In this document: in pieces, positions 1 to 32,900 of the stretch
Layout: every line of letters begins with the position of its first letter
Position numbering within the stretch: position 1 is the first letter of the stretch
Assembly: GCA_040143965.1 (NCBI GenBank)
Contig: JASJQH010006919.1
Span: forward strand, 1-39,234
Direction: 5' to 3'
Source: Basidiobolus ranarum
Taxonomy: Eukaryota
DNA length: 39,234 nt
The notes under the pieces: generated by a model
Seen by the model: only the letters and a program-made list of their open reading frames with translations
Told to the model about the DNA's origin: nothing
The model's database searches: none
Made by a program: the position numbers and the translations under genes

Positions 1-1632
1 ATTATTAAACTCTGCTGACCAATCCAAGCCATCATCCTGATCCGTGATGGATTGCTTCCATATATCTTCTAACCTCGATTTATCATTCGAGTTTAAAGCA
101 AGCTCCTCAGGGAATTCTTGACTATTCAAGAAAGCAACAACATCATTGCCATCAGTATCCTCCGAGGTTTCAAAGGGTAATAGATTATGTTCAGCCAAAT
201 TTTGATCATCCTCATGCAAATGATTCAAATTATCACCCTCGACACCCATGTTAAGGAACTCAGTAGACCAATCTATATGGCCATTGTCTTTAGTTGGTTC
301 GTTGAGTGCTTTCTGTGATTCAGGAAGATTATTTTCACTTTCTTCTTTAAATTCAGCTGCCCACTCTGAGTAAGTGTCTTCTCCGTTATAAACTTGCTCT
401 ACAACAGATATGTCGCTCGAGGATGGTAACAATTCTTCAGGAAATTCTGTGCTATTTAAAAATGCCACCACATCGTCTCCATCTGTTTCCGATGGCCAAT
501 TAGTTTGAGTATTTGAAAAATCACCACGAAATGTCTGCTGCCAAGCTTCTTCAAGCTCCTCCAAGTCTTTTGGATTACGTTGCGATGCTTCACCATGCTC
601 ACTCTGAAAAGCAGTAAATTCATCTTGCTCAGATGCAAGATATTTAGGGCTTTGAATAATACTACCCAATGATGATTTGGTATTTGGCTCTGCTGAAGCG
701 AATGATTGACCTAATTCTACTGGATTGGAATTGAATTCAACTTCAGAATCATTACTGTTAGGGATGCTTCTCTGGTTTTCTGAAGAAATGTGTAGTGATT
801 GTTCGCTTAGATAATTGGGTATATCGTGACTCTCGAATGGATGAGATGCACTATTGTCAGTATTGAATTCTTCTTCGTTCTCATGATTACTTTCTACTAT
901 AGGGCTCTCTATCAAATTTTCACCAAAATGACTTAAAAACTCATCAGCCCATGCATAAGCACGACTTTCAGCAGAGGTGGTAGCGGTTTTATCAGGAGAT
1001 ATCAATAAAGGCTCGGTATTGTTTACATATAGGCCGACCTGTGGAGCAGACTTTAGTGAAAAGCGATTATTCAGAGGAAATCTAGGTCCAGAAAATTCTT
1101 CATTCAGGGGCTGAATGCTTTCACGTTCTGTGACAAACGAAGTATCTAACTGCTGTTCAGTTGAATTTTCGGAATAATCTTGCCCTGAATTGGAGGAAGT
1201 GTTAACGTCTTCAAAGTGTTGCAGCTCGTCCTCAAGAGATGGACCAGCTACAGACCTTTGTCCAATAGATTCAAAAGCGTGATGGGCTGAAGAGCCTTCC
1301 ATGTACGATCCAGTTTGAGAAGTATCATTAATAGACTCTGCCCATTGACTAGAACTCTCAAGAGGATTAATAGCATTTCCAGAGAAAGGGGTGGAATTTC
1401 CAGGTTTGTTAGAAAGTATACTAGCGAGGTTAGCGTTTGTAGATGATCCATTGGCTACACTACCTCCTAAAAAACTTCGAAATAAAGAGCGAGTAGAATT
1501 CGCAATGCCGCTAAACGCAGAGGTCCTATCTGGGACTTTACCAGCCTTTTTACTCTGAGAACTGGCGAGTATGTTAGAAGCATCTGAAGCTCGCTTTCCA
1601 AAATTCTTGCTCGGTCGATGTGAATCAGACAT
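1..1632 (-). CDS. Large acidic, Ser-rich protein with multiple WxxxF motifs (Pex5/Pex20 N-terminus-like); 3' end lies outside the window
   Basis: Uninterrupted minus-strand frame from ATG at 1632 (MSDSHRPSKNFGKRAS...) to base 1, 544 codons with no stop, which is probably why the ORF track omits it. It contains WADEF, WQQTF, WAAEF, WSTEF and WSAEF, plus a duplicated DG[DN]DVVAFLNS[TQ]EFPEEL motif. Coding status is well supported; function is inferred. Confidence 0.8.
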   Translation of the reverse strand, partial: MSDSHRPSKNFGKRASDASNILASSQSKKAGKVPDRTSAFSGIANSTRSLFRSFLGGSVANGSSTNANLASILSNKPGNSTPFSGNAINPLESSSQWAESINDTSQTGSYMEGSSAHHAFESIGQRSVAGPSLEDELQHFEDVNTSSNSGQDYSENSTEQQLDTSFVTERESIQPLNEEFSGPRFPLNNRFSLKSAPQVGLYVNNTEPLLISPDKTATTSAESRAYAWADEFLSHFGENLIESPIVESNHENEEEFNTDNSASHPFESHDIPNYLSEQSLHISSENQRSIPNSNDSEVEFNSNPVELGQSFASAEPNTKSSLGSIIQSPKYLASEQDEFTAFQSEHGEASQRNPKDLEELEEAWQQTFRGDFSNTQTNWPSETDGDDVVAFLNSTEFPEELLPSSSDISVVEQVYNGEDTYSEWAAEFKEESENNLPESQKALNEPTKDNGHIDWSTEFLNMGVEGDNLNHLHEDDQNLAEHNLLPFETSEDTDGNDVVAFLNSQEFPEELALNSNDKSRLEDIWKQSITDQDDGLDWSAEFNN

Positions 1633-2306
1633 TTACTGTCTTCCAGAAAGTATCCTCAATAAAATAAACCTTTAACTAAACTGTAGATGTATTTAGAAAG
1701 AAAACTATAGAATCAATGGAAGGCTCGTGGCTTTTTGTCTTAACAGAGTAAAATATCAGGTTGGGTGATACTACCATTAAGAAGTATCCAAAAAATCCGG
1801 AACATTTTTCGTATGACAAACTCACGGAGTACATAAAATACTGATATTCAACAAATGTATATTTATATTTGTGGCTTTGATGTTTGCAGTAATGTTAGCA
1901 TCTGTTAATTTGGAACAGTAATTCGCAATATGTAAATAGATCTTAATTCAAAGCCCAATATAAGCATTTAAGCAAAATTCCCCAAACTTAATTTTGTGTA
2001 TGCGTATACAATCACGATGGAATTGAAAAAATAGGTCTGGTTTTTTTTCAAGATACATGATCAAGGGGGAACAGATTCAGGCATTCTATTGGTCATATGG
2101 TTTGACTGGAGACTCAGAATCACCTCAATTAATGCGATCAGCCGAAAATCCATTCTTTCTCTCTCTCGCTGTTTCCCAACCAAGCGACTGTATTCTTGGT
2201 AAGAATTATAATCTATTTGAGAAGTTTACATGGGGTTTATCTCGTTAGATCTTACATTTGCTCACATCAAATTATTTCCATTATCCATCCATCCATAAAA
2301 CAGAAA

Positions 2307-2731
2307 ATGGCAAAGGAACAAAAGGGTACCAAGCGTTCCACTCTCTCTGACGTTGTCACCAGAGAATACACTGTTCACCTTCACAAGCTCATTCATGATC
2401 GGTAAGTCCTACAACTAGTTGTACCATTGAGATACCTTCTAATTGTCGGTGTATTCATAGCCAATTCAAGAAAAAGGCTCCTACTGCTGTCAAAGCCATC
2501 AAGGCTTTTGCCGCCAAGCACATGGGTACTGTTGATGTCCGCTTAGATCCTTCTGTAAACAAGCAAGTTTGGAGCCACGGTATTCGCAACGTTCAACGTC
2601 GTATTCGTGTTCGCCTTGCTCGTAGACGTAACGATGATGAAGATGCCAAGGAAAAACTCTATACTTATGTTACTTTTGTTCCTGTTACCTCTTACAAGGG
2701 TCTTCAAACTGAAGTAGTTGAAGAGAACTAG
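2307..2731 (+). CDS. RPL31: 60S ribosomal protein L31 (eL31); exons 2307-2401, 2461-2731
   Basis: Spliced translation [102 protein letters not shown] carries the eL31 signatures. The 59-bp intron is GTAAGT...CTAAT...TAG. Confidence 0.97.
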
Positions 2732-3911: not shown

Positions 3912-5223
3912 ATGAAGGTAAGCGAGTGAATAGTCCTTGACCCAGGCGGAAAGAGACTTATCTGTATCACCATGTAGTCTAAATTCTTCTTTACGACTCT
4001 AGAAAATTAAGGTAAACTATTCACAGACAACACTAATTCTGTCTATCGTGGAAGCTATAATTGTCGTAGTGTTGGAGTCGCTCGTTGCATATACCTATTC
4101 CAAAAGCCCGGAGCAAGGAGATACCCCAAATAAATACACCTCCTTGTTAGTTTACTTCATCATTTTTATCAGCTCTCAAGTGTTCCAGGTTGTACTGGTA
4201 TGGGATGCTGTAAGTAGAACCCACATAGTGCTTAACGAGGAGTTACATTGGCAACTTTCTAAACTTTTATTTTTCTAGTTGAGATATGAAAATACAATCC
4301 AAATTATCGCATTCGTTCTATTCAATCTATCTTGCTTTTGCTACTCGCTAATCCAATATAATCAACTGAGTCAAAGCTTAGTTTCTGGATCATCGATGGA
4401 CTTGTGTCGATACATGACCATCTCCATTGCTGCAATTATGTTTGTATTCTTTCTATTATATATATGGTTGGGATACCGCCTCTATCGGGAGTTTGGGTGG
4501 AAAATCTATAAGCGCATAGGTGCAGATGTTCGAATGAAAGGTGATTACTATCTTTAACAAATTTGTTAACCTCGATAGACTAATGCTTACCTCGATACAC
4601 ATCAGCTCGGTATCGCACGTACCAAATCTTTCTTACTTTGGTGAAGCTTGATGTATTCTTTTTCCTTGGTTTCTGCGTGCAATTCCTAGTACTGGTTCTT
4701 GTTGGAAGTGATCCCGAGTTTCCAATTACTATAGCTTCGCTACCCATCATTCTCATTACACTAGTGCTGGCCGTGTATTGTATTCGACATGAGAACCAAG
4801 TGGTAACGGTGATTTTCCTGTTTGGTTTGTGCTGTGGCGCTGGATACTTCATTTTCAAATTGATACGAATGCAACAAAGACGTAATGAAGACAAGTACAA
4901 AAATGTTATCATCTTTCTATCCTTCTTTGGTATTGTCTATCTATGCTAGTCGCTAGATGTTCTCACCACTTTCTAACTCCTGAATTGTTTGCAGCTGCTC
5001 TCTCTTTGATTATGATCTCCGCGACTATAGTCATGACTGTTCAATGTTACATGAATTTTGGTAAAGGACTGAAGTTTCACCGTAAGTGATTTAAATTCTA
5101 TTTCACGATATACCCATCACCTACGAACCGATTATTGACTCTTCTGAATCCATAGTAAGCACTACTCCGGCTATAGCTCAAACACGAGCACCTACTGAAC
5201 GCAATCTAAATTTAATTGAGTAA
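3912..5223 (+). CDS. UPF0658-like Golgi multi-pass membrane protein; exons 3912-3917, 4003-4209, 4279-4540, 4606-4929, 4995-5081, 5156-5223
   Basis: GT-AG introns join in frame to give several hydrophobic helices. Motifs recalled for this fungal family: WDALRYENTIQII, YREFGWKIYKRIGAD, YQIFLTLVKLDVFFF, CYMNFGKGLK. The 6-bp first exon is the least certain part. Confidence 0.8.
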
Positions 5224-6339
5224 ATAAACCCCGATACTATTATTTTTTTTCACAATTCAAAAGAGAACTGTTTTTGACTTCTGCTTCAATTCATGAGTTG
5301 TTTCTTGAGAATTCCTTTTATCGTTATCATACGTTTCTGTGCAATCCATCGTTTTCGGTCAGTTCATTCATTTCTTGGTTTGTACTAAGATTCTCTTATT
5401 ATTTTTATTAAGTATGTACTTTCATATTGGGGGATTATGTTCACCGCTATTGGACTGTTTTAACAAGTAAAATGTCATATTAACCCAGCCAGGACGCATG
5501 TTAAGCAACACATATAGTAGAGTATATTTAGTTTCGTAGTATGCAACATATGGGATTAGTAATCAAAAAGGAACTAATAAAAGTGATCCCAAACCAAGTG
5601 TACCCATATAGGGTTTAAGTTATCATTGTCAATCTGAAGGCACACATTTGGTAACTACATACTATCCCCGTAATGTTGCGCGCAGTAGCTGGGTCTGATG
5701 CAATATAGTTGATAATAATGCGTTAAGGTTTGTGAACGAGACATTGTCAACGGTTTCATTCCATTTCTCCATGTGACCCAATCCAAGTTTACTTTGATGC
5801 GCATAGACGAAACGGGTAGATGTCATCAATTGGGCTTGAGCCAACATGGCGTTATTTTTCGGATCAGATGTATTACACCATAATAATTCACCATCTATGA
5901 AACACTATTATGTAATTGAGGCTACATGTTCTAAGCTGGTGTTTTCAAAATTATTACGACAATCTTATACAAAGATGCAGGAATTGACTGGAGGAAAGCT
6001 ATATTGGATAGAATCCTTCTGATACGTGGAAATTGACCGGAGCTGAAATTGGACTTGTTAGTCTAGATTCTTTCAAGAGGAGACACCCTTCCCACTTGTG
6101 TCTATCAGCGAGAGATGCGACATCTCAGGTTGATGTGATCCACTCAATATGTGAAGCATTTTGAATGAACACACCATATGTGCTTCATAGTCTTTCGTAC
6201 TTTGACTCTGGGATCATTACCAGTATTGTCCCTGCATATGGGTGATATCTTTTACTATAGCATCATATTCGAGGCATCCATCAAGAGATAGAAGAGTTTA
6301 TTCAAGTCGTTTGAAGGCACGAATCATAAAGGACATCCT

Positions 6340-6567
6340 TCAGTTCATATTTAAGTAATCACGTTCTTCGGTTATCTTTTTCATCAAGGTTTCATGCTTT
6401 CCTGCCATCTTCTGATGGTATGCTACTTGCTCTATGCTAACCGGACGTCCATTCATCGTGTAATGAGAGTCAAGTTGGTCATTGTTTACCAAATCGATTG
6501 TGGGATGATTAGGATTATAGTAGTGATGGTTTAAATCGTCAAGAATACTTTGGGAAGGTTGTGTCAT
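6340..6567 (-). CDS. Small protein (75 aa), paralogue 1 of an unrecognised three-gene family
   Basis: Shares NGRPVSIEQVAYHQKMAGKHETLMKKIT motif with the ORFs at 7670 and 8396. TATAAA starts 90 bp upstream of the ATG. Confidence 0.75.
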   Translation of the reverse strand: MTQPSQSILDDLNHHYYNPNHPTIDLVNNDQLDSHYTMNGRPVSIEQVAYHQKMAGKHETLMKKITEERDYLNMN

Positions 6568-7669
6568 ACTTATAAAAGGTGCTTCTGATGGAGTAGATGT
6601 CGTGCGTTGTCCGAAATAGAAACAGATGAGCGAAACGAAAGCGCTACTTGGTTTATATGAGGTGCGTCGAGTGTTTGTACGATGCTTGGGTCATCATGAC
6701 ATCACCAAGACAATAGGTACGATTTTGATGTCATCGTCAGTCAATATTTGGATCATATTTGTCACAATCCATGCAACAAAAACATCTGTACCCGTGTTTG
6801 AATCACTCATGCACATTATTCGGCCAACCAGTGACTTGCGATTTCAGGTCAAACTAACACCAAATTATCGAGGTGTTGGACATTCAGAGCCAATCGTCAC
6901 ACTCAATTTGTCCAGAGCTAAAAAAGAACAGATCGAAGATCATCGGCCCAGACAGCTCTCTGTTGCGACGGGTATTTTGCCTATGCTAGGCTGATTAAGT
7001 GTACGGTCAAAGAACAAATAAAAAATGTACTACACTTAACGGACAGACTACAATAATTGATTGAAATATGAGGTCAAAGAAATCAGCCTGCAGTCTGGTG
7101 TAGTCAAGGTGTATCCTTGGCACTCGCTCTCTAAAACTAGTTGTTTTGAATTTCCAGTTATCGGGGTTCTGAAAAGAAAATCGTAGTTAAAACTGGTCCA
7201 TTCAAGTAGTAAAATAAGCTTTGGCCTCCGTGCATGAATATCGCTTAGCAGTCAACTGCTAATCGAGTTTGCTGATTATATCACATTGGGCACACACCTA
7301 TTATAGCAGATCTTTGAAATGACCAATTGACGTTGAGAAGTCATGTTTTCTATTAGGCGAAAGGCACTCAATATGGAAGTGAGATTGTAAGAGCTAGTGC
7401 TAGTGTTAGTGATGAGTAAATCATAGGATGATCTAGATCACCTTCAAATATGTCATTGTCTTCAGACCTGGCAATGATAAAGTTCATACAATCCTCTGAC
7501 TCATGCGACGCAAAAATTACCAAAGTCTTGGTCACTGCACTGCACAAGGATTTTCGAAGCAGTCCCATAAGTCGAATATGTATAAATAATCAGACCTGTA
7601 AGCATGATTACCAACTATATGCTATCCATAAGCTCCTACATCTGCTTCTGATCCCTATTTGAAAGAACA

Positions 7670-7897
7670 ATGCAGAACCAACACAACCAATACCGTGAAC
7701 CCCAAGAATCTGCTGCTACAATTCAATCTCATCCACTTTACGAGCCTACCCCAAATAGCGATGCTCACGGACAAGAGATTCCAAACCCCACTCCCATACT
7801 AAACGGACGCCGGCTAAGTATTGAACAAGCTGTGTACCATAATTCCATGGCTAATCAACACGAGGCTATGATAAAACAGCTTACCCAGAACCATTGA
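7670..7897 (+). CDS. Small protein (75 aa), paralogue 2 of an unrecognised three-gene family
   Basis: Motif NGRRLSIEQAVYHNSMANQHEAMIKQLT. TATAAATA at 7581, 89 bp upstream. ACAATG start context. Confidence 0.75.
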   Translation: MQNQHNQYREPQESAATIQSHPLYEPTPNSDAHGQEIPNPTPILNGRRLSIEQAVYHNSMANQHEAMIKQLTQNH

Positions 7898-8395
7898 TAA
7901 AATTTGAACTTGTTTCGTATTAGTTCCTAATTGATATAGGCATGTAGCAACTTGAGTTCCAATTTTTGTAGTAAATAGTATTCTAGCAGGGCACAGAACC
8001 ATATATAAATCATATAAAACATAATCTTTAAACTAAATTTGCTTTGGTTAGGCGAATGAGGGAGTATTTCATTTATTCAGATTTGACATGGATGTCATTG
8101 GAGGAGCATCCACCAAGTACGTGGATTTCCATCTAAACTTGCAAAGTGACACTTGGAATTTCAACAGATAGTTTTGTAGTGGAAACACTGACTACTCCAA
8201 TTTCATCCTTGACAATATAACCGGTATGGAATTGACTAAAAAACTAGCTTCTAATTGTGTACATTTTTTGGAAGTTGAGTTGGTACGTATCCATGTAGTG
8301 TATTTATTGGAAGAGTAAATGGAGTAGTCATATATATATATATACAGTAGTCACTGAGCCTTCTGCTAGCCTGGAGAGTTTAAAATATCTTTATC

Positions 8396-8626
8396 TCAAG
8401 GTGAGTTATTGTTTCCTGTCAATCGTTGAATTATAGCTTCGCATTGCCCCGCGATAATTTTGTGGTATGCTATTTCTTCAGCACTGAGACGACGACCTTC
8501 AATCGTGATAATAGACATAGTATACTCCTCCAAGTTTCCTGACATACCGCCTTTGTTAGGACAACTAGGGTAATAATGGTTCAAGGAATCTTGAGACTTA
8601 GCGGTGTGTAGATGTGACTGGGTCAT
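8396..8626 (-). CDS. Small protein (76 aa), paralogue 3 of an unrecognised three-gene family
   Basis: Motif EGRRLSAEEIAYHKIIAGQCEAIIQRLT. N-terminus MTQ...DSLNHYYP resembles paralogue 1 (MTQ...DDLNHHYYNP). TATATA starts 91 bp upstream. Confidence 0.75.
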   Translation of the reverse strand: MTQSHLHTAKSQDSLNHYYPSCPNKGGMSGNLEEYTMSIITIEGRRLSAEEIAYHKIIAGQCEAIIQRLTGNNNSP

Positions 8627-11017
8627 AGCTAACTGTGACAGATTTCTTACTTTGGTGGATAGTGGAATTTGTATTATGAGTTATTTTCAACAGAGGGACT
8701 TCACACAGGACTATATACTGGAGGCACAGCAGGTCAGAAAGAGTGTTACGACTTCCTATTCTGTATTGGATCCTTTAGTTGAAATCTGCTTTGGTATTTG
8801 TATGTAAGTGGATATGATTATTGCTAAAATAGATTTGGTCATATCATATTACATCATTCCGAACATTTAACTACATTTGCAGACTCTATTATTATGTATT
8901 TCATAAACTCTAATCAATGGGTGTCTCGCAGTGTTTTCCTTCGTCATTCTCTACAAATTGGAGGACCTGTAATCTTCCTTACGAATCGTGGCTAACCTAT
9001 AGACCTAACTGCGAGTTGACCTAATTAAGTATGCTCAAGATCGGGCTGTGCTATAGCTACCACATTTTCTATGTGCTCATTGATGATGCACTTAACATGA
9101 AGTACATTAAAAGATCGAGTTGTGTGTCATTGAAGATGGTCCTCAACATTCGCCTCTGCTCATATTAAATAGATGGAATTACAACATTGGGCATATTTAT
9201 TTATGAGATTTCTCTAGGGTTTCCCATGTTCTCGATATGGGAGGGGTAGTCCACAGACTTCTCTATAGCGATATAGGCGCTACCGCAATAAGTATCTGAT
9301 AAACAAGCACTTCGCAAAGCTTGGATGATAGTTCGATCATGTTTCATCACATGAAATGTATGATCGTTAATCATCCTTTGGTCGTTGCGCTATTTTGTAA
9401 GATCGTGGGAATGAATAAGGAATGAAATTTCCAATTTTGACTTGGCCAAGAGTACAGGCATTCATCCATATCACTCGAGGTTGAGGAGATAATGGCTTTC
9501 TACAGGTCAAAGAAGATTGTATGGCTGGTTCATCAAGTACACCACAACTTTTAGTGCTGGCTTGATATGGGTAGAATGCACTTGGTCTCAGGTGGATCAT
9601 TAATATCTGGGGTGACTGGGCTTCAAGCATTTTATCGATGAGAATGTTGTGACGGAGAGGTGTGTTCATGGAATATATTTAGGTACAATGGGCTGATCTC
9701 TATTGGCACTTCACCCACTGCTAATATTCCATCAATCAATTGCTGTACCTTTTTAGAGTCCCTTGATTTGGTAATTGTCATTACTTTCTCCTTTCTATAA
9801 TAATGAACGACAACATCATTTAGCTCTACACTCAGACTGCCCCATTAAAGAGCAAATGATAAACGTGAAGTAGTCAATAAGAGTCTAGCTAAGGATATCC
9901 CAAGCATATTCTAGATTACAAATGGGATCCTATAAGAAACGCTCCTGGTCAAACGTTGAATGGAAAGGTAGAACTGTTATATGTGCTGAGCCTATATATT
10001 GGCTATTTTAAGATGACTTGTTCTAAGCATACCATATTATTTGGTTTAATTGTAGGGTATTACTCTCCGTCATTCCTCTAGCCTTCTTGTTGAATGGGAA
10101 TTCTAGGTGACGCTCGTCACTTGCTCATACATATAGATGAATGATTGAAGCTTAATACTGCATTTTGTACTTGAAGGTAAATCGATATAGCCAATTGGTG
10201 CTGTTATGAAATTGGAATCTAGAAGAGGCATGCTTAAGACTTAATTGGAAGTTTCATATCAAGTAAGCCTAATTTCCCAGTATCGCAAGTGAAATAACTC
10301 TTATGTAAGAACTGGGATCAATTGGATTGAGTAGAATCTGGCTATTTTACTTTTGAGGAGGGGGGTTTGATACAGATCAATTGGATCGAAACACCCATAT
10401 GGGTTGACCTGTTTATTTATTTTTTTCCAATGGATGAGTTCAAATGGATCCTTGAAGTATTTTCACCAAATATGTTCATCTGTACTGATTCCGTTTGTCC
10501 ACTTGTAGAACACACTAAGGATCAGGGCGGCTACAACTACACTTTCAACAATCCAAAAAAGCAAGCCTTGTTAAAGGGGGTCCCTGGTTAAAATGGTCGA
10601 GGTGGGTGGATTTCAGCTACTACCATTAGAGCTAGTGATACATGATTAAGAATGTATGTCAGACACAACAATTAGTTCGCTCCTCGAGATTTCTCTCGTT
10701 TATTCTACTATATACAGTGTGATAGAATGGATAAGAGTAACAGATCGAGGCTGTCACTGAGTTGTGGATAGTTTGAATATAACGCTAACAAGCATTTTAA
10801 AGGTGAGAGCTAGATGGTTAAATTATGCGGCTTGAGTAATGTTCTGAAGAATATGGTATTTGATATGCGATACGTAAGTAAAAATAGATATGGGCGCTAA
10901 ACTAAGGCATGCTATTCGAGTATGGTTTGGTGTCGTATTAGGGAATAATAGTTGGATGAAGGTCTGCAGAAAAAGGGCGGTCAAAAGAGAATAGTCACTA
11001 ATTAGTTGGATTGTTTT

Positions 11018-11791
11018 CTAGTGGGATATTTGTCTATTCTGGAAGTAGGTCTGTAAAAGTCCCAGTGGAACATCATCGTCATCGTCATCATCTTTTTCCT
11101 CTTCAAGGCCATTGGCTCCTGTAATTCTACTTTCAAAGCGAGAGTAAGGAGGAGGTGGTGGAATATATTGGAGTTTGGGAGTTACGGGTGTGGGAACTGG
11201 AGCAATCTGCGAGTATGTAGCTTTTCCTACACGCTTGAGAAAAGCCGCCTTTTCTATAACTCTACGTTCAATTAAAGACGGGTGAAGCCCATCTACGGTG
11301 ACAGAACATTGGAGTTTGGACATGGTTTGATGAATTAGAAGAACTTGCACCATAGGACGTTCTTTACAATTACGTAGCTTTTCCAAGCTCATGATGTATG
11401 CGGATTTCACCGGGGAATATCCAGGACGTTGTTCATGCAAATCGGCATTCAACGCCATATGCAACAAATCATTGTGCATAGTCTGGCCTTCTTTTTCAAA
11501 TTCGTCGAACATATCTTCAGAAGAGAGCTTCTCTTCCTCCGTAGAGGTTGCGAAAAACCGAAAACTACTGAATAGTTGCTTGAAAGTATATGGTTTGGCT
11601 TCTTTGGGAGTGAGTGTTTGAACATGGGCAGAGCTAACAGCATCAGAGTGGTTAAATGGTCTATTTGATACGTCGAGTTTTGTGTCTTTTTCCAACTCAT
11701 AAGTACTCAGTGAAATGAGACTAGTCAAATAGCCGTGAGGTGCTTTTTTAAAGCTCAAGGCTGGTGGTGGTAACGTTATCTCGGAAGGCAT
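11018..11791 (-). CDS. Uncharacterised 257-aa protein with a SERTA/Zds_C-like helical motif, a PPPPPY motif and an acidic DDDVPL tail
   Basis: Long single-exon ORF in AT-rich DNA with protein-like composition. Motifs YIMSLEKLRNCKERPMVQVLLIHQTMSKL, IPPPPPYS and DDDDDDDVPLGLL are read directly. Confidence 0.8.
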   Translation of the reverse strand: MPSEITLPPPALSFKKAPHGYLTSLISLSTYELEKDTKLDVSNRPFNHSDAVSSAHVQTLTPKEAKPYTFKQLFSSFRFFATSTEEEKLSSEDMFDEFEKEGQTMHNDLLHMALNADLHEQRPGYSPVKSAYIMSLEKLRNCKERPMVQVLLIHQTMSKLQCSVTVDGLHPSLIERRVIEKAAFLKRVGKATYSQIAPVPTPVTPKLQYIPPPPPYSRFESRITGANGLEEEKDDDDDDDVPLGLLQTYFQNRQISH

Positions 11792-14700: not shown

Positions 14701-16146
14701 ATTTCGAAAAACAGCCTGAAGTTTGGTGATCTATTTATCTCTACACACTCAACAATAATCTTTGATAAATGTACGCAATCATCAACTTTTCAATATTCTT
14801 ATTAAATCATAAACTACAATCGCATATATATATATAATTAAAACTACTTTCTGAATACTATCATGCCAATAACAACAGCTGATGGTCGTCTTTGACAAGG
14901 ATGCTGTGTATTGAAGATACATATAGAAAGTAAGTTCCAAAGTGTAGGGGAATTGAGTGATTATTCACGCCAATACTGCTACTTGGTAAACGTATAATAC
15001 CTGGTTGGATTTATAATTATAAAAGCAACGGCTCACTAAATATGAGGAGAATCCTAAAACCTATTCAAGGATGCTCTAAACTAACAGAAACCTCAAGTAC
15101 CTTTTTGGACCTCAGGGCAAGAAGAGTTAAACACTCCCGCTCGTTAAGATTTCAAACAAGGTAACTCCGCCCCTACCACTCGAAAGTCCCATCGATATAA
15201 CGGGATGATATACTGATACATCTCTATATTGCAACTGTATATAGCCGAGGTTAATCTGGCTGAAGCTGTGTAACCCAATTTGACTCGAAAGAACTTACAA
15301 CCCTGGATATTGCATTATCACATCGCAATGACAATATGGGTTTGGGTCAATCTAAACCGTTGCCACCCCTCAGAGAGACGGAAGGCATATAAGAGTAAAG
15401 ATTGTGAGATTTTGGATTGTTTTATTGCCCATCATTCACCGCCTACGCCTAATACCTAAGTTTTGAATATTAAAACAACTTCCATATATGGTGCATCTAA
15501 GTATAACTCTTAGTGATGTACTACATATTAATCTATTTATGTACTGGGTTACCAGAAACCATTCTAAAATACGCAGAGGATATCTAATTTTCTTCATAAT
15601 GTAATCAAACTATATCGTTTCTCGTCAACAATTTAGCCCTGACATAGGGAAATGAAAGATTGGATTGGAGGGGTGGTAGAAATCTTCAAAACTTCCTCAA
15701 ACGTCAATAATATAACAATCTTCACGGTAATTGCTTGGTAATATGTTTCAATCACTACCATTCAATTCTGTGAAGGCACGATTAGGAGGAGGTGATGGCA
15801 ATTCGCAATAAGCGTATGCGGACTGCTTTGAATCACTATATATTTGGAATCTAGTATATTGCATAACTTTGGGCTTTCTTGTGATCGCTATTGGCTATGT
15901 AGCTCTGTTACTTTTCCAAGCATAATGATAATAAAACTCAAGACAGCAATGGTCCCAATTCATCTCATTCGATAACGGCATCAAATACAGGATAGTATTA
16001 ATATTCAGTACATACTGTCTTAATAGAGCCTATGCTATATTGTGGAATGTATCAAATTGAGCTTGATGAAGGAGTAAAAAGGGAAATTTATCTGGTGAAT
16101 AGAACTGACAAAACGAGAGGTAATATATCCGACTTGAGACTTCACC

Positions 16147-16154
16147 TATATAAA
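16147..16154 (+). promoter_or_regulatory. TATA box of the secreted protein gene
   Basis: TATATAAA 104 bp upstream of the signal-peptide ATG at 16251. Confidence 0.55.
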
Positions 16155-16250
16155 CCTCTTTCATTCTTAACCAGCATCAAAAATTCTGATTGTTTGTTTG
16201 TTTCGCAAATACTAACTTGGGAAGTTACTCTACTTACTAGGATTATACAC

Positions 16251-16895
16251 ATGAAGTTCTTAAGATCGATTATTGTTGCCGGCCTATTGAGTGTTGCATC
16301 TGCTTGTGAAAACGAGTGTCGTCAAGCAGCAGACCGGGACTTTGTTGATAAATATACCCCTTTGGTTACTGAGTTATTCAGCAACTTCGAGAGAGACGTG
16401 AAATCTACTTTTTCTTACGAGATACGGACACATATTGCCCTTGAAGCCAATGTTAAGAATGCTTTCTACAAATCTCAACAACTTCTCATGGAAAAAATGC
16501 ATAATATTATGGACTACGGTATTTTCGGCAAATACCACGCTCGTTGCCATCAAGTAGATACTCCTGGATGTCCAAATTACTATTGCTTAGAAGTGTGCGG
16601 CTCTCCTGGCTCCATTATCTACTATTTGGATGATGTATTGACTCGTACTCGTGCTGGTGTTATTGAGGCCATCAAAGCAGACTCTGATGAGAATGGGAAA
16701 TACGATCAGCTTATTTGGGCCGCTGTAGTTAAGATTTTGGGGAAAGATGTGAGTCCCGCTAACTTGGATAAACTTCGTGTCGACTACTTGGTAGACCTTA
16801 AAACTTTCCAAGACAATGCTGACACTATATGTGAAAAGGATTGCTTTGAAAAATGGGCCCCAAAGCTTGTTTACTTACTACAAGGTTATGATTAA
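16251..16895 (+). CDS. Secreted cysteine-containing protein (214 aa, 8 Cys), uncharacterised
   Basis: Classical signal peptide MKFLRSIIVAGLLSVASA followed by CENECR, then YHARC...GCPNYYCLEVCGSPGS and ICEKDCF. Start moved from 16032 to 16251 because of the signal peptide and the TATA box. Confidence 0.85.
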   Translation: MKFLRSIIVAGLLSVASACENECRQAADRDFVDKYTPLVTELFSNFERDVKSTFSYEIRTHIALEANVKNAFYKSQQLLMEKMHNIMDYGIFGKYHARCHQVDTPGCPNYYCLEVCGSPGSIIYYLDDVLTRTRAGVIEAIKADSDENGKYDQLIWAAVVKILGKDVSPANLDKLRVDYLVDLKTFQDNADTICEKDCFEKWAPKLVYLLQGYD

Positions 16896-18126: not shown

Positions 18127-19092
18127 TATCAATTGAAACTCATTGACTGCTTGGCAGTACTTGATACAAATAAATCCGTTTCAAAATATAAGTAGTAGGC
18201 GTACAAATCAAACCAAATGATGTCATGAACTATGTAAGCTGGTAAGCGTTTTGGATGAACATTCTATGGCATTAGTAAGTGCAACAGTGAGAATCGACAA
18301 ATGATTTCAATCGGAAAACACTTTGGGAAAAGCAAGACCAAATCGCCACCTTGATAGCATTGAGAATGAACGCACCCCCCAGGATTTTGCTCGCTTAAAA
18401 AAGCTAGAAAAGATGAAATGTCCCGACACTGCCTGCGACTATTGCCAAGCATTCAACATGCTCTCATTGGCTTGCAGCCATCATTGTTTACATAAGAAAC
18501 CCGATGCTCGAATGTGTAATGGAAAGGCGGAGATTAGCTAGCCATGACTGATCCCAGAGTTGGGAATGCAACCATTGGTCCCCACTACAAGCCAGGGGGA
18601 GATCAGTATGATGGTGGCGAAATTGCACTGATATCGTATTCAAAACTACCGACCAAATCCTTCATTGTCTTGAGATCGTCAACCTCAGGTTGCCTCCTTT
18701 CTCCAATATTTTCCAGCCTGACGTGAAACAAACACATCAAGATACTCTATTTGCATTGGATATCGGCAGCTGATTGATTGAAATTCTGCTCATAATCTAT
18801 CATCATTCTACTGGCGGTGGAGACCGATTTTTTATGGGACCTCTTAATCACCTCAATCAGTCATAGCGATGCAACAATTAATTTATTAATAAAGCAATTT
18901 AAGGTTCCGCTGGTTTTATTTTTGGCTTATTCCTGAAGCTGATCTGGAAATATATAAGTACCCAGTGTCACTCAATTTGTCAATTACTTTTGTAAATACA
19001 TTTTCAATTTGGGTGCATCAGTCTCCGCAGCATCACCAGGACTTCATAAACCTTGTCATTTGAGATTCCAACACCTTCATTGATTTTCTAAA

Positions 19093-20385
19093 ATGCCTAG
19101 CACAGTCCCAATTGAGGTAGTCGTCACCCCTTGTTTGGACAAGAACGAGCATAATTCAATTCGAGTGTATCATTTACCTTCCAAGGCTGTTGTACAGGGA
19201 ATCGAACCAAAATTCCTTCCTCTTTCGCACCCAAGCTCTTCTCTTTCATTGGATAACTATTCTACCTTAACGACATATTCCTCAGCTCATTCCTCTTCAA
19301 GCTTTAACTCGGAGCACGATTGCTCTTCCATCAACCTCACTCAGATTCCAAGTCGGTTCGTATTTACCGAGATAAAAAAGCATACCGCAAGTCCTACAAA
19401 GAAACGCCGTTTTGCTATATTTTCGCAATTGAGAAAGGTTCTAGCACGCCAAAAGAAAAAAGTGTTTCCCCTTATTGATGCTCTCGAAAAACGTCAAGGA
19501 CCTTCGCTCAAAGATTGCTATGGCGTGTTTGTTGACGTTATAGGTTCTGGAAATGGCGGAAGCGTTCTTCTTGCTCGTAAGGATACGGAAGAGCAGGTAA
19601 CATAAGACCTTATATTCATCATTTGAATCCAGATATTAATGTTATTACGAAATTCTTAGAAGTATGCCGTGAAAAATTTTCGACAACGCTTTCCTGGAGA
19701 AAGTGAAGCACAGTATTATGAATGGCTTAGTAACGAGATATTTATCGCAGCCTCTGTTCAGCATCCTCACATCATTGACATTCATGACGTTGTGCTCGAA
19801 GAGGGAGAGATCCATCAAATCATGGAATATTGTCCAACTGATGTATTTCGAATCGTCAATTCTGGAGAAATGACCATGGACAAAGCGAATAAATACTTTG
19901 CTCAGCTTATACTCGGACTTTCTTATCTACATGGCCGCGGCTTTGGTCATCGCGATTTGAAGCTTGAAAATATTTGTGTCGATACAAACGACGACATCAA
20001 AATTATTGATTTCGGATGTGCAATTGTGTTCCGAACTTTTGGTCGCGAGCCTAAACTCGTTGAAGATGTCTGTGGCTCTGACCCGTACATTGCACCAGAA
20101 ATCTTTGATGGCGAGGCGTACGATGTGAGAAAATCCGATATCTGGTCAGCGGCCATCATCTACATCACGATGATACTGCATAAATTCCCCTGGGACATCG
20201 CTCGGTCGAACGATAAATCCTATAAACTATACTTGGAGCACCGTAAAACTGGTCGCTTTTTCACCAAAATCCCCCACGTAGCTGCGACGATATTAAAAAG
20301 GATGCTTGAGCCTAATCCCAGCTTACGTGCTTCTATGGATGAAGTATTGGCCGATGACTGGATTCAGAGTCTGATTTCTACGTAG
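19093..20385 (+). CDS. Ser/Thr protein kinase, fungal HAL/NPR/HRK-like; exons 19093-19596, 19660-20385
   Basis: Kinase motifs GSGNGGSV, KYAVK (formed across the 63-bp GTAACA...TAG intron), HRDLKLEN, DFG, CGSDPYIAPE and DIWS. Ser-rich N-terminus. TATATAA at 18951. Confidence 0.92.
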
Positions 20386-23366: not shown

Positions 23367-24134
23367 ATGAATTTATTGAAAACTGGAAGTACTCTACCGT
23401 TGGACCAACTTCGGAACACTTTGATTCGCTTGGAAGATACAATTATCTTTGCTTTGATTGAAAGAGCTCAGTTTGCCACTAATGATACAATTTATGAAGT
23501 GGATAAGTTCAAGTTTGAAGACAGAAAGAATGTCTCTTTTCTTGAATATATCCTGCATGAGTTGGAGATATCTCATGCCAAAGTACGAAGATACACCAGT
23601 CCTGATGAATACCCTTTTACCTCCAACCTCCCTGACCCTATCTTGCCATCATTGAACTTTCCACCGGTTCTCCATCCAAATAATATTAACATTAATCAGA
23701 AGCTCTACAATATATACATACAAAGCATAGTACCTACTATATGCGTCAAAGGTGACGATCAAAACTACGGAACCTCAGCTACTAGAGACGTAGAATGTCT
23801 ACAGGCACTCTCACGACGTATTCACTATGGAAAATTCATTGCTGAAGCAAAATTCACTGATCCAGAGCTTCACGATAAATATGTGGAGCTGATCAAAGCT
23901 CGCGATTCCCAAAGTATCTACAATCTTTTAACCAATGTAACTGTGGAGGAGAAATTGCTTCAACGCTTGCGTCAAAAGGCCTCTATTTACGGTCAAGATA
24001 TTTCAACCAACGGTGCAGTTCCTGACCATGGAAGTAAGATTGCCGTTGATGCTGTGATCAATCTTTATAAGGATTACGTTATTCCACTAACAAAAGAGGT
24101 GGAGGTGGAGTACCTTCTTCGACGTTTAGATTAA
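23367..24134 (+). CDS. ARO7: Chorismate mutase (eukaryotic AroQ type)
   Basis: LIRLEDTIIFALIERAQF, RRYTSPDEYPF, LQALSRRIHYGKFIAEAKF and VIPLTKEVEVEYLLRRL match yeast Aro7 signatures. Intronless, 255 aa. Confidence 0.97.
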   Translation: MNLLKTGSTLPLDQLRNTLIRLEDTIIFALIERAQFATNDTIYEVDKFKFEDRKNVSFLEYILHELEISHAKVRRYTSPDEYPFTSNLPDPILPSLNFPPVLHPNNININQKLYNIYIQSIVPTICVKGDDQNYGTSATRDVECLQALSRRIHYGKFIAEAKFTDPELHDKYVELIKARDSQSIYNLLTNVTVEEKLLQRLRQKASIYGQDISTNGAVPDHGSKIAVDAVINLYKDYVIPLTKEVEVEYLLRRLD

Positions 24135-25982: not shown

Positions 25983-28140
25983 ATGTTGCTAAACACTACT
26001 AAACAACTGAAAGATAAAAATTTTGGTAAGTAATTTTATACCCTCGTCTTGTGTTGTTTATCTACAGTTTTGTTTAACGAAAGTTTGAAGATGGTGTAGA
26101 TCAGGAGCTTTACGATCTGATAGGCGGTGTTCCCCCTATATCGATAAATAAAAAGTCTTTAAAACAAAAAGCAGATAAAGAAGATAAATGGTAGAGATAC
26201 ATCCCTCCCCTATCCTAGTATTAAGTATAAATATTTACCTGATTTTATAGGGAATGTAAAGGCTTTACCAGTAGTGCACGAGACGATGATCTCATCTTGC
26301 ATCATTGGACAAAAGTAGGAGAAGAAACAGCAGGTATTATTCTACACTCGCGTTCAATTCAAGTGAATGTTAGCTTATCTATTTTGTCTGATACAGATTT
26401 CCATTTCGCACAGTTCAACAAAATAGTTGATCTTGTAGATTATTCAGAAGAAGATTATCAACAATATTTAACGCGTAAGAGATGATGCTGAAAACTCCCA
26501 TTTTTATCTATAGTTAAATATTTACCGTATCCAAATAATATCGTAGAGGAAAACTGGACAAAAGAGGAGACCGACTATCTTTTTGAATTATGCCAACAAT
26601 ACGATTTAAGATTTGTAGTTATAGCGGATAGATATAGTTTTTCTGGAGTAGAGAAATCCATGGAGGTAATTATTTCTCTTGGAAATATCTTTATGAATCT
26701 CTTTAATAACTTAATGATGACAGGACATGAAGGAAAGATATTATAGTGTCACTAGTAAGATGTTAGCAATTCGAGCGGCTAGAGGAGAGAAAATAAACCA
26801 AGAGCGTATACTGTCAATGAGCTTCGATAAAGGTTTGGATTTATTATACCCGGATTGTTGTATATTCTAAATAACACATATCCTTGCAATTAGACAAAGA
26901 AACACAAAGAAAAAGGAATCTCATTCAACTTTATGATCGAGACCGAGCACAGATTGAGGTTTTTTAATCCCGAAGAGATACTTTCAAACAACTCCATGTA
27001 CTTACCAAGTATTTTAATGCAGGCCGAGGAATCGCTCTATTTTGAATCCCTGAGACTTGAGCAAAATGAACGGAACTTATACAAAGAAAGAGAGAACCAT
27101 TTGCTTCTTTTTAACGCTAAAGAGCTACACATTCCCAAACCTCCCGTAGAGGAGGCTTCCACAACAGCATCTCCAAATCCACTTGCCTTTCCTGAAGGAG
27201 TTTTTAAGGTCTTTCTTTTTCGATTTATGATATCAAGGGGATAAGGCCATATATATATATATATATAGCCATAAATATTCTCCAACCAAGTTACAATATT
27301 GCTCACCATTGATAGCACTCCTATAGTCCAAAAAAAAGAAAGTATTAGTGAAAAAAGATGCCAAGCCTTTAAAGGAGCATATAGCGGACCCTAGTCCCTC
27401 CGTTGTCAAAGATGTAGTCGTCGTTAAACAAGAACCGGGGGAAATATCTACTCCACTCAAACCAACTTTTCCTAAGAGTGTGGTGGCATCCAAAGCTACT
27501 CCCATCAAAACGGTCCCTACCCCTGAATGTTAGCTTTGTATTACAATGCATAGACTATTTTATCATAAGCACTCATCGATCTAACAATCTGATTCAATTT
27601 CATTGTTTATTAGCAGTTGGTGCTCCTGTATCTACTACACTTTCTCCTCTCACAACCAAGAAGGATAAACTTCCACCTGGAGTCCACCTGCGAAGTACTA
27701 GAATTGCTCCAATTAAACAGAGTCAATTTCAAAAGATAGCAGCGGTTTTAGAGGAATATGGAATCAGTAAGCCTAATTTCCATGAAGCTCTCAACCTGTA
27801 TGTTATCTGACTCTTTTAATTTGTCACTTTAGAGACATCCCGACCAACCATGCCAACAGCCACAGTTTGTAATAAGTTTGATGAGTTACTTTACGATACT
27901 CTATCTTTGTTGGATTACAAGAAGCAAGTTGAGAAACTAGAGCATGAGCTCAAAGTCGTGAAGCACAAGATTGACGAGTGTACCAACGGAGCCTCTTCAG
28001 ATGGTTCCCTTACACCTGGGGTAAAATATATATTTTGTAATTCAGATACGTGCAATCCACATATTTATCCTCGCATCTAATTATAGCGCAAGAGAATGTC
28101 CTCGATATCTTCCAAAGACATTAAGAAGATCAAGAAATAG
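25983..28140 (+). CDS. SWC4: SWR1/NuA4 complex subunit Swc4/Eaf2 (DMAP1 homologue); exons 25983-26025, 26091-26190, 26251-26333, 26397-26474, 26547-26665, 26724-26832, 26894-26958, 27023-27208, 27327-27528, 27614-27766, 27833-28020, 28087-28140
   Basis: Spliced translation gives DGVDQELYDLIGG, WECKGFTSSARDDDLILHHW, FAQFNK, the SANT-like WTKEETDYLFELCQQYDLRFVVIADRY, SMEDMKERYY, GVHLRS and PTMPTATVCNKFDEL. All introns are GT-AG. The start exon is uncertain. Confidence 0.9.
27249..27267. repeat. (AT)n microsatellite inside a SWC4 intron
   Basis: About 9 consecutive AT units in intron 27209-27326, the longest intron of the gene. Confidence 0.8.
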
Positions 28141-28649: not shown

Positions 28650-29974
28650 TTAATTGGGACTAGCAGTCAGCTTCGAGCGTCCAGTAATTCTCAATCGAAT
28701 CTCCTCCTTTAAGTTCTCAGTTAATCCATACATTATAGCATCACACAAACCAATGAATTGCGAAGAGGCCTGCATGACTGTCAAAATTCGATTTGAATCA
28801 CCACTTATCTCGATCATACGATTGAGTATTCCCGGTATCCAACATATAGTATACACAACCGGGTACAGACACATCTTCAGCATCACACGGGTTATTCTCT
28901 TCTCATTACTCGATGGTCTTTTCATTGGGAGACCATCGGCACCAGTTTTACCAGGACTCTTGGGTGATTTTTTTAATCCAAACTTGATCATTAGCGTGGT
29001 AAATTTGGGCTCATGATTGGAATTCGCTTCAATATGGCGGCTGACTTCGCTCATATTTGTATCTGTAACCTCACTTCTGAGGGATGGTTCTGCGTAGAAC
29101 TCTTGATAGTTGGAAGCTAATTCTATGCCCCCATGGGTGCTAGAATCATTTGCATAGGTTTGATCACTACTGTTTTGGCTAAGAGAGGTCTTTTTCAAGA
29201 TCAAATACAATCGAATATAGAAGAAGAATACCAAGGGAATGATAGCGAATCTAAAACCATGGGTTAAAGCGTAACGCACCCATGCCGGATGAGGTGGTAG
29301 CCAACACCAATTTCCTGATACTATATGGTAGCATATCAAGAGGTTAATGGGTTATAATTGAAACATAGGTAGTTAACAAGTTACGCACCTGGAACATAGC
29401 CTACTGTGAACTGTCCTATCAACGCGGTAGTTAGAGAGAATCCCCACACACATATATAAAGCCAAGGCTCGTATACTTGGAGAAAATTTAACGCATGTAA
29501 CCATTCCAAGGGTTTGGATATGGCTGAGTAGGTGACTACTGCAATCAATAAAGTAGAGAAATCTTGAGCCTGTTTACAACAAAGCGTAATCAGATGGTTG
29601 GTATGTTGAAGAAGCATCAAAGAATGATTTGAAATACTAACCTGTACAGTTACTTGGCCTACAAAGCCATTGATGGAACAGAAGGTGCCCGGGTGAATGA
29701 CTCCCTCCTTACCCAGCTGTATTCCAGATACCGTGTTGTTTAAAGAATTCAAAAAATCTAACAAAACAACAAAATTAGAACTCAGTGAGAGGTGGGAATT
29801 TATATATGATAGTGCAAACTAACCGGCTATCGATAGACTTAGAATCAGGCGATGTCTGTATGTTCTACATGAAGGAAGACACACATAGCACAGAATCAGG
29901 AGTAGACTAGCTATAGTACTTATTGAGCTTCCAACTAGACTGCTTAATAAAAATCCGTTTGCGGAGGCTGCCAT
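28650..29974 (-). CDS. Seven-transmembrane GPCR, Git3/cAMP-receptor-like; exons 29974-29824, 29757-29642, 29569-29389, 29320-28650
   Basis: In-frame GT-AG joins give RHRLILSLSIADFLNSLNN, CSINGFVGQVTVQAQD, SGNWCWL, KMCLYPVVYTICWIPGILNR and GLCDAIMYG. About seven hydrophobic segments with a long polar third intracellular loop. Confidence 0.88.
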
Positions 29975-32900
29975 CAAGTTATAATAGAGAGCAACTAGGC
30001 ATCTACTTCTGGTTAAAATTCGTTTTTTGGGTAGCCCGGTTGAAAAAAACCTTGGAAAGCAACAGCAATGAATGGAAGAACAAGTTACGTCTGATCTATT
30101 TATGACTTCCAACGTGCTTTCCCCACTTGCTTGTGCATGATTCATATGCATATAATTCCGATAGATGTAACCTTCCTCGATATAATTAGATCAGTTGAAA
30201 AGAATACAACATATCTCAATTTGGCAAGGCCATCATGAATTTAAAATTAGGTTGCAGTATTGTTTGGACAATCGTATTAGGCGTCTTTCTTAATATGACA
30301 GTATAGACCATAAGAAGCCTCCATAGGTGTACACATATATAGATAAGCCTGTAATTCAGACTACGTTTAGACTGCTTGGCCCAAATTCCCTGTTTTTCTG
30401 AACGTATTACATCAGTATAAGTCAACAATGATCACGGGAGCATCACATGCAGAGAGTGTCCGGTGACCTTAACATGAACACGAACAGGAGGAGTGCCGAT
30501 ATAAGCGACCTCAATAGCTATGCAAAGTCAATCTTATTCTCAGTGTAGATGTACTTCAGCAATGATCGCGGATAAACTGTTTGAGAACTTGAAAAGAAAT
30601 CAGTATCATTACGGTACCACTTGTAGAAAGATAAAAAACGCCTTCTACCAATATACCCTCAATGTACTCAATTCGTTAGCACAAGGAACTCGGGAAAGAA
30701 TTGAACCATATACAGCTAGTGCTATGGACAAGAATGGCATCATTAGAGTCTGGGAAATTACTGATTCAATCGAATTTGGTTACTTGATTGCCATTTCATA
30801 TAAAAGCTTAAGATTGAATTACCTGAAAACGCGACACTGACCCGCAAATGATCAATGAACTTCTGACTCGGAATAATAGAACCATGGACTGACAAAGGAT
30901 GGGAGAAGTAATCCTAATGTGTCACCAATTTGGAGGATATCTAGAAACCATGGCGGCAAAGGGACTTCCCTGGTATACACCAATGTCGCCTCATGGAGTC
31001 ATTTGTAACACTCACGGTTGGGCCCAAAACAGATTGATAAAGTATTAGCCCAAGATGTAAATCCACTGTCAACGAGAGAATGGGGTTTTGCCTGACATAT
31101 CTTTATTTCCATATATCTTTGTTACACACATATCAATGTATCTGCCTGAAACAGCAACGTGAGCTTTTGTACTCTGAAGAGTACTGAATGGTAGATTTTG
31201 ACTGATAAATCAAGTGGTACGTGTAAGACGACAAGGGTTGATTTCGCACCACATTCCACTCACAATAGTGTTTTTGGAAATATCCTGTTCCCATTTACAG
31301 AGGCCCACTTCACTTTAGCATTCCCAAACATGATCTAGCCATCTATATACAATTTACCCATTAGCACTGATGTTTGAGCTTTGGGAACATCCACAACATG
31401 GATTTAAAGTTGCTGCAACGGTATGTTGTATGGACTCAGAGGAATCCGTTTTAGTGAACATTGCCGGTTATTTGCTTCATCTATTACACAAAAAAGCAGG
31501 CTTCCCATACTTGAACTATGTCGCTTTGATTTGGGGCAAATGCTATATCAGTGTGCCATATGGTTCTTGGGAGAAAAATCGAGCCAAATCGTTTATGGAA
31601 TAGTTAATGGTACACAATTGTGTACTGTCTCAAAGTGAAGTTGATGTTGAAAATAGAAAATTTTACTGAGTATATTACGTTTTCTACATGATATTTACCA
31701 ATCATGATTAGCTGGTATAAGTAATTAATTTTATGTAACCGTGCTCTTATTGGTATGAGCTAATGAATCAAGTATATCAACCCAGGATCAAAGCCCAACA
31801 TTTATACTCAATATCACAAGCACACGAGAGCTTACATAAGCTTCATGGCGGGTCACTTGGTGAATAAATAGTTAGTAGGACTTGAGTTCGGATGCATGGG
31901 ATGAAAATAGAACTATTAACGTGTAACAAGTACCCATTACGCACAAACTATCTTTCATTTTACTCCTTTTAAACTAGAGATAAACTCTTCTAATATATGC
32001 ACCACAAGTGTGGGGTTTGTTGCACGGCTGCAGTTCGGAGTATTTGTAGTAGATGCGAAGCAATAGCTACCTTCGGAGTGTTCTTCGGCTTTATGTTGAT
32101 ATATTCAGCGCTTATCTTAGCAAAACTATGAAGATGGTAGTTGCATGCAAAATTGATCAAGTGCAATTCAGGATAGGGCGGAGAAACATAGGGCTGGTAC
32201 TTTATTTGTGTAACTTCCGGAGTTGTCCATATTTGGTGACTTGAAAATTGACATTAGGCTACTTCATTAATACAGTTTTTTGCTACTCAAGTATTAAGAA
32301 GGCTGGCATAGAGTTAATAGAGCTTTCTCTCACCTCGGAATTATTTCAGTATTATTGTGAAAATATGTCAATAAGTAGTAACAGGATCGAATTTGCAGTG
32401 AGAGCAATACACAAGTCTAACAAAGGTGCTGCTGTCCGGTGTGCCAAGTCACAAGACAGACTACATTTGGAATTAACTAGGTGATGATCAAAATGTAGAA
32501 TGACTCATGACGGTCACTGAAGTTGTACTCAAATTCCAGATTAATTTCGGGCTAAGTTAGTAATAAGGAAGGAGTGACGATAGTCGGTAAACTGGTTTTC
32601 GTATTTGCAAAGTTGTATTACGATTCGTAATTTCTGCACCACCATAGCCGCATTGATGAAACTTAGGTTTAAAGTAAATATCAGTGGCTAGAGGTTACAC
32701 TCAAAGAGTCATAAATATCATCAATTCGTATCTGATTGAGCTGATATTATATTATCAGAACAATGACCGAATTTCTAATCTATTTGGCAAGGACCATGTA
32801 ATAAAATGGACACTCCCATCCTAATAATCCTCAACTTAATGATGGACAAAGCCCAAAATATGAAAACTCAGTTCGAAATCGTGAGATCTTTGGCAAGGCA

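Follow-up and report, generated by a model that had tools for sequence, protein, structure and literature searches.

Three short open reading frames (ORFs) lie close together in a 39,234-nucleotide (nt) stretch of Basidiobolus DNA (contig JASJQH010006919.1, positions 1 to 39,234; the window hereafter means this whole stretch), raising the question of whether they are genes and, if so, what kind of protein they specify. Basidiobolus is a gut-associated, occasionally pathogenic, early-diverging fungus. An initial annotation made from the DNA alone had described the ORFs, here termed copies 1, 2 and 3 (c1, c2 and c3), as diverged paralogues of 75, 75 and 76 amino acids (aa), and its coordinates, strands and lengths were correct for all three (Table 1). 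On the evidence of sequence comparison c1, c2 and c3 are very probably real protein-coding genes. The trio is best described as a genus-restricted orphan family; such families are a known kind, and the constrained module of this one is unusually well defined.

The similarity between the three copies was far above chance level. Comparison by tblastn within the window gave E-values of 6.9e-10 (c1-c2), 1.0e-7 (c1-c3) and 9.4e-7 (c2-c3), and no fourth copy was present there, with every match beyond the trio at an E-value of at least 0.15. A hidden Markov model (HMM) of the family searched against the six-frame segments of the window (at least 20 aa) recovered only c1, c2 and c3 (E 1e-33 to 1e-38); the best segment outside the family scored E 3. 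The flanks of the three copies shared no DNA similarity when the extended loci were compared, the sole long DNA match being the spacer physically common to c2 and c3. These two genes are convergent with 498 bp separating their stops, and a short (TA)n microsatellite lies inside this spacer at ~8333-8347.

Four independent lines of evidence favored coding: the codon-position pattern, codon usage, the placement of TATA boxes and counterparts in B. ranarum. Over an ungapped block of 28 codons, identity between copy pairs was 15-19/28 at codon position 1 and 21-23/28 at position 2, compared to 7-10/28 at position 3. In the same block (Nei-Gojobori method, between copies) the proportion of nonsynonymous differences (pN) was 0.26-0.34 compared to a synonymous proportion (pS) of 0.79-0.93, at which synonymous sites are saturated. 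The ratio of nonsynonymous to synonymous change (dN/dS) between copies is far below 1, saturation leaving no finite value, and the module is under purifying selection. As synonymous sites are saturated while the protein has been kept, the ORFs are read as coding. Codon usage was scored as log-odds trained on 1468 codons from the domain-bearing ORFs of the window. In their own reading frame the three copies scored +0.16 to +0.31 bits/codon (c1, +0.18 bits/codon), and in the other five frames they scored negatively, a contrast to which the stop penalty contributes part, and the variable N-terminal 36 codons also scored positively in the ORF frame.

Each copy has a TATA box at a near-constant distance upstream of its ATG (Table 1). 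Of the 48 ATG ORFs in the window with at least 60 aa and at least 100 nt upstream, three carried TATA[AT]A at -92 to -88, and these were exactly c1, c2 and c3. The background of this motif in the window is 0.0021 per site, and the chance of two more copies matching the position of the first box within +/-1 nt is ~4e-5. Beyond the TATA box, no 7- or 8-mer was common to all three promoters within 400 nt upstream. The interval between c1 and c2 contains a 122-aa ATG ORF (6626-6994, plus strand) that overlaps the putative c1 promoter and its TATA box; it had no Pfam match and a codon score of -0.03 bits/codon, and is probably not a gene.

When 1.84 billion representative proteins were searched by profile, the matches included c3 itself and two B. 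ranarum proteins of 69 and 76 aa (E 5e-15 and 1e-13). These relatives (KAK9759595.1 and KAK9759596.1) are the 'hypothetical proteins' K7432_017248 and K7432_017249, which have consecutive locus tags and are both intact on one 2292-bp contig. K7432_017248 is the counterpart of c2, with 61% identity overall, 27/32 in the module and 14/40 in the N-terminal part. K7432_017249 is the counterpart of c3, with 45% identity overall, 19/32 in the module and 14/39 in the N-terminal part, and like c3 it has MTQSHL and a Cys replacing the second His of the module. The N-terminal parts of both counterpart pairs carry in-frame indels. This one-to-one pairing indicates that the c2/c3 duplication is older than the split from B. 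ranarum, and the adjacency of the two genes appears to have been maintained since. With pN far below the saturated pS, the earlier proposal of an old duplicated family under protein-level constraint was upheld. Identity to B. ranarum (45-61% for these counterparts, compared to 83% for the neighboring chorismate mutase) shows that the family evolves fast, its N-terminal half especially.

The distribution of the family appears narrow. The exact c2 and c3 sequences were present in an NCBI/UniRef-derived collection, and the exact c1 sequence was neither in it nor in the 15-billion-protein collection searched; the suggestion that such short genes had been missed by annotation therefore holds for c1 at most and fails for c2 and c3. 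A word-indexed search of 5.8 billion proteins with the five-sequence alignment returned only the four known family members, and none of the 240 pattern matches from a scan of JGI metagenomes was a relative. The only other match of the profile search, a 1745-aa bacterial repeat protein with seven matching stretches (E 1e-4), was rejected as a low-complexity artefact on inspection of its sequence. Among the annotated proteins searched, the five members thus appear to form a genus-restricted orphan family of small proteins (69-76 aa). The listings and abstract openings of the Basidiobolus literature yielded no paper on microproteins or small ORFs.

The proteins divide into a variable N-terminal half and a conserved C-terminal module (Table 1). 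The 28-residue strings of all three copies were verified, as were the consensus given in the initial annotation and the MTQ and LNH(H)YY shared by c1 and c3. The true module has 32 residues instead of 28 and includes four mostly hydrophobic residues preceding the [NE]-G pair. YTM does occur in both c1 and c3, but at a different offset from the GR motif in each. In order, the module consists of hydrophobic-x-hydrophobic, [NE]-G, R-x-hydrophobic, a serine as helix N-cap with E/Q at the next two or three positions, and a helix. Nine residues (M1, G, R, S, Y, H, A, E, T) do not vary among the five members. Once the two B. ranarum relatives are included, the E of S-x-E, two positions past the serine, is no longer invariant. 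R-x-x-S is present in 5/5 members and R-R-x-S-hydrophobic in 4/5 (as R-R-L-S-I or R-R-L-S-A). The Y-H and [HC]-E pairs are kept in 5/5. The second His is a Cys in c3 and a His in the other copies of the window, and the codons at this position (CAC in c2, TGC in c3) differ by two base substitutions.

Structure prediction with AlphaFold2 (AF2) gave the same outline for c1 and c2: residues 1 to ~32-35 with a predicted local distance difference test (pLDDT) score below 50, then a hairpin around the N-G turn, then one helix. The c1 model has strands at 36-38 and 41-43 and a helix at 45-74 (pLDDT 85-90), and the c2 model a short hairpin at 43-48 and a helix at 51-73 (pLDDT 86-95). Polar, charged, Pro or Gly residues make up 71-78% of the N-terminal parts, which have a net charge of -1 to -9. 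These parts contain no hydrophobic stretch, which makes a signal peptide or a mitochondrial presequence improbable. The earlier picture of a disordered N-terminus followed by one amphipathic helix therefore stood for the disorder and the single C-terminal helix, but the amphipathicity is weak, the helix having a mean hydrophobicity near 0 and a hydrophobic moment (muH) of 0.11-0.23 on the Eisenberg scale. The moment points to 313-37 degrees and coincides with His8 (340 degrees) and His/Cys15 (320 degrees), which puts this invariant His, and the His/Cys seven positions further on, in the middle of the apolar face. A heterodimer prediction for residues 38-75 of c2 with residues 36-76 of c3 gave an ipSAE of 0.02 in both runs, in which alignments were unused and controls were not folded, and was counted neither way.

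The module matched no known family. For all five members, hmmscan against Pfam-A returned no family at E <= 10, and the PDB was without matches at E <= 10 both in a sequence profile search and with Foldseek. VIA-align wide, run with a very small model, reached a best Z of 3.4 with generic long single helices throughout, and the ESM Atlas returned only generic rows below the bar (GAF, HTH and single-helix clusters). Rfam gave no match over the whole window. No transposase, reverse transcriptase (RT) or integrase Pfam family was found in the scanned ORFs of at least 70 aa, and in 5000-10500 direct repeats were absent and the only inverted pairs were three of 18-19 nt. The lack of any known-family or transposon match in these searches agrees with the initial annotation, which had not recognized the motif.

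The closest known kind of thing is the fungal orphan small-protein family, which the trio resembles in being short, one-exon, fast-evolving and locally duplicated, with no homologue detected outside the genus. It differs from a young, weakly constrained ORF in predating a species split and in having a sharply bounded 32-residue module under purifying selection. Three better-characterized systems were also compared. The cyclic AMP (cAMP)-dependent protein kinase (PKA) inhibitor PKI (PF02827) is likewise ~75 aa and largely disordered, with G-R-R-x-[S]-hydrophobic beside a helix. The PKI pseudosubstrate is R-R-N-A-I; in the family, by contrast, the P0 position is Ser in 5/5 members and thus substrate-like rather than a pseudosubstrate Ala. 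The helix follows the basic site in the trio and precedes it in PKI, and copy 1 has R-P-V-S. PKI membership was rejected on the phosphorylatable Ser at P0 and the lack of any profile match at E <= 10 for the five members. C2H2 zinc fingers have two Cys in a hairpin and two His spaced 3-5 in a helix. The trio resembles them in a predicted beta-hairpin followed directly by a helix within ~30 residues and in a His and a His/Cys on that helix, but no member has a hairpin Cys, the ligand spacing is 7 instead of 3-5 and there was no Pfam, PDB or Foldseek match, so this candidate was also rejected. Ribbon-helix-helix proteins have a G-x-S/T loop with an N-capped helix in a strand-helix-helix topology, and the G-R-x-x-S turn into a serine-capped helix with a short strand before it is similar. 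This candidate was rejected as well: AF2 gave a hairpin and one helix in two runs, so that the first helix of that topology is missing, no ribbon-helix-helix Pfam family was matched and the host is eukaryotic.

The explanation we favor, to which we give somewhat better than an even chance, is that the copies are three genes of a Basidiobolus-only family whose products carry a hairpin-helix binding module with a serine in a kinase consensus at the helix N-cap. They would be three separate one-exon genes, each with its own TATA-type promoter. Lacking the character of a signal peptide or presequence, the proteins probably reside in the cytosol or the nucleus. Their N-terminal half is fast-evolving, acidic, polar and predicted to be disordered, and the constrained C-terminal module is predicted to form a two-stranded hairpin with an N-G or E-G turn followed by a serine-capped helix of ~23-30 residues. 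This helix may be the surface that binds another protein or mediates self-association, and a compact hairpin-helix with a polar His/His(Cys) stripe within its apolar face would fit a binding surface better than an enzyme. We put the module being an interaction helix at about an even chance. What the data show is homology, purifying selection, a restricted distribution, promoter-like architecture and a predicted fold, whereas localization, binding, phosphorylation and any physiological role are inferred.

R-R-x-S-hydrophobic is the PKA-type consensus of basophilic kinases, and it is matched, as the substrate consensus R-R-x-S/T-hydrophobic, in 4/5 members, copy 1 excepted. Phosphate at a helix N-cap is expected to alter stability, here that of the helix and the hairpin, and phosphorylation of the N-cap serine could switch the binding or folding of the module. 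Regulation of the module by phosphorylation, suggested by this motif, is a tentative proposal that we consider rather doubtful. A bolder version would make the trio Basidiobolus-specific switchable helical microproteins of cAMP/PKA-type signaling, with the module as a docking or competitive-substrate element and with binding to a conserved target toggled by Ser phosphorylation and possibly by metal or pH sensing through the His-His/Cys pair. We regard this version as quite improbable; if true, PKA-linked microproteins would be a class of regulator without counterpart in other fungi.

Several observations weigh against the favored explanation. The family rests on only five sequences from two species, and the annotated B. 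meristosporus proteome contained no member, though its chorismate mutase sits in the same database. The NCBI/UniRef entries for c2 and c3 may stem from ab initio gene calls only, and the saturation of pS leaves dN/dS between copies without a numerical value. The AF2 alignments were only five sequences deep, with an overall pLDDT of ~66, and the amphipathic moment is low (0.11-0.23). In c1 the motif is G-R-P-V-S(-I) instead of G-R-R-L-S, so the second Arg of the kinase consensus is absent, and G-R-x-x-S might be invariant for structural reasons only, in forming a turn and a helix N-cap.

The rival explanations concern both the function of the proteins and the existence of the genes. Metal binding is the chief functional rival; the His and His/Cys, with the adjacent invariant Tyr and Glu, would coordinate Zn, Cu, Ni or haem in metal-binding or metal-sensing microproteins, probably across an oligomer interface. 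H-x6-[HC] is centered on the apolar face and the two flanking pairs are invariant in 5/5 members; the c3 lineage has, in both its members, exchanged His for Cys, which is likewise a classic ligand, and this is suggestive as it needed two base changes. A single chain, however, offers only two clear ligands, no metal-site family was matched in Pfam or the PDB, and His or Cys buried in the core of helices is common without metal too, and we consider metal binding unlikely. Much the same probability is given to hydrophilin-like stress protectants, disordered proteins with no specific partner and a helix formed only conditionally, e.g., on desiccation or membranes. Such proteins would be small and highly polar, as these are, with a predicted-disordered N-terminal half, a helix hydrophobicity near 0 and several clustered copies. 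Here, however, conservation falls on particular positions (G, R, S, Y, H, A, E, T) and not on composition, it is poor in the disordered half, and the Pfam search gave no hydrophilin, LEA or Hsp12 match.

That the ORFs are untranslated, being either frames open by chance in non-coding DNA that is conserved or the output of automated gene prediction, is very unlikely. The family is tiny and open frames of this length are common, as the 48 ORFs of the comparison set show, but codon position 3 is far less conserved than position 2, the opposite of conserved non-coding DNA, and frame and length have been held in five diverged sequences despite indels in the N-terminal half. The codon score that is positive in the ORF frame only and the TATA boxes at a fixed distance argue in the same direction. 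Least probable, to the point of being hardly credible, is that the ORFs are exons or pieces of a longer gene, or remnants of a transposon or of a domesticated mobile-element protein. Introns do occur in this genome, and in the window the RPL31e and DMAP1-like genes each extend over more than one ORF; the start Met and MTQ/MQ have nevertheless been retained, the stop falls 3-9 residues past the module in all five members and in-frame stops lie 21-126 nt upstream of the c1, c2 and c3 ATGs. The repeat and mobile-element searches described above offer nothing for this rival, and the only longer protein with a module-like match among the 1.84 billion searched was the spurious repeat protein.

If expressed, the trio defines a small protein family unique to Basidiobolus, whose 32-residue module looks able to fold autonomously and has no match in either Pfam or the PDB. 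It would be a clean example of a lineage-specific family retained and duplicated under selection, and the module is short enough for peptide synthesis, nuclear magnetic resonance (NMR) and pull-downs, making it a tractable orphan-microprotein target. General interest is moderate, because fungal genomes commonly contain orphan families of small ORFs, and the trio has no bearing on a long-standing open question.

Table 1. Positions of the three genes, their conserved modules and their putative promoter and poly(A) elements in the window.
Feature	Position	Strand	Evidence
c1, coding sequence, one exon, 75 aa	6340..6567	-	ORF list, tblastn and HMM homology, codon score
c2, coding sequence, one exon, 75 aa	7670..7897	+	ORF list, tblastn and HMM homology, B. 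ranarum counterpart
c3, coding sequence, one exon, 76 aa	8396..8626	-	ORF list, tblastn and HMM homology, B. ranarum counterpart
c1 hairpin-helix module, 32 aa, residues 35-66	6370..6465	-	alignment; AF2
c2 hairpin-helix module, 32 aa, residues 41-72	7790..7885	+	alignment; AF2
c3 hairpin-helix module, 32 aa, residues 39-70	8417..8512	-	alignment
TATAAA, -90 from c1 ATG, putative core promoter	6652..6657	-	
TATAAAT, -89 from c2 ATG, putative core promoter	7581..7587	+	
TATATA, -91 from c3 ATG, putative core promoter	8712..8717	-	
AATAAA, 38 nt past c1 stop, possible poly(A) signal	6297..6302	-	
AATAAA, 88 nt past c3 stop, possible poly(A) signal	8303..8308	-	

The surroundings of the trio appear otherwise ordinary. 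The window has ~38% GC and only 6 ORFs of at least 150 aa, and this scarcity of long ORFs, with genes split across ORFs, marks it as DNA of an intron-bearing eukaryote. An RPL31e gene at 2133-2728 (plus strand; Pfam) consists of two ORFs (2133-2402 and 2399-2728), implying an intron, and a DMAP1/SWC4-like gene at 26243-28077 (plus strand) has its SANT_DAMP1_like and DMAP1 domains spread over several ORFs, again pointing to introns. The one-exon chorismate mutase at 23367-24134 (plus strand) has 85% identity to the B. meristosporus enzyme and 83% to the B. ranarum one, and the next matches (Mortierellomycotina, Kickxellomycotina and others) have at most 64%; on these identities the source was placed as a Basidiobolus-like fungus. 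Within 19084-20382 (plus strand), a protein kinase domain at 19660-20382 (Pfam Pkinase, E 1e-47) has CIPK23, Chk1, Snf1 and MARK as solved relatives and is CAMK-like. A link between the trio and this kinase gene was dropped, as the kinase is CAMK-like, not PKA, and 11 kb away. The 170-aa ORF directly upstream of it (19093-19605) had no Pfam match and may be its N-terminal exon. Git3/Gpr1-type receptors feed the cAMP-PKA pathway in yeasts, and a Git3/Gpr1-like G-protein-coupled receptor with Git3 and GPR_Gpa2_C domains (E 3e-5 to 8e-5) is encoded at 28653-30190 (minus strand), 20 kb from the trio, with no link claimed. Three further ORFs were without a significant Pfam domain: 1-1632 (minus strand, 544 aa, open at the window edge), 11018-11791 (minus strand, 257 aa) and 16032-16895 (plus strand, 287 aa). 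The latter two had codon scores of +0.20 and +0.10 in frame, respectively, and may be further lineage-specific genes.

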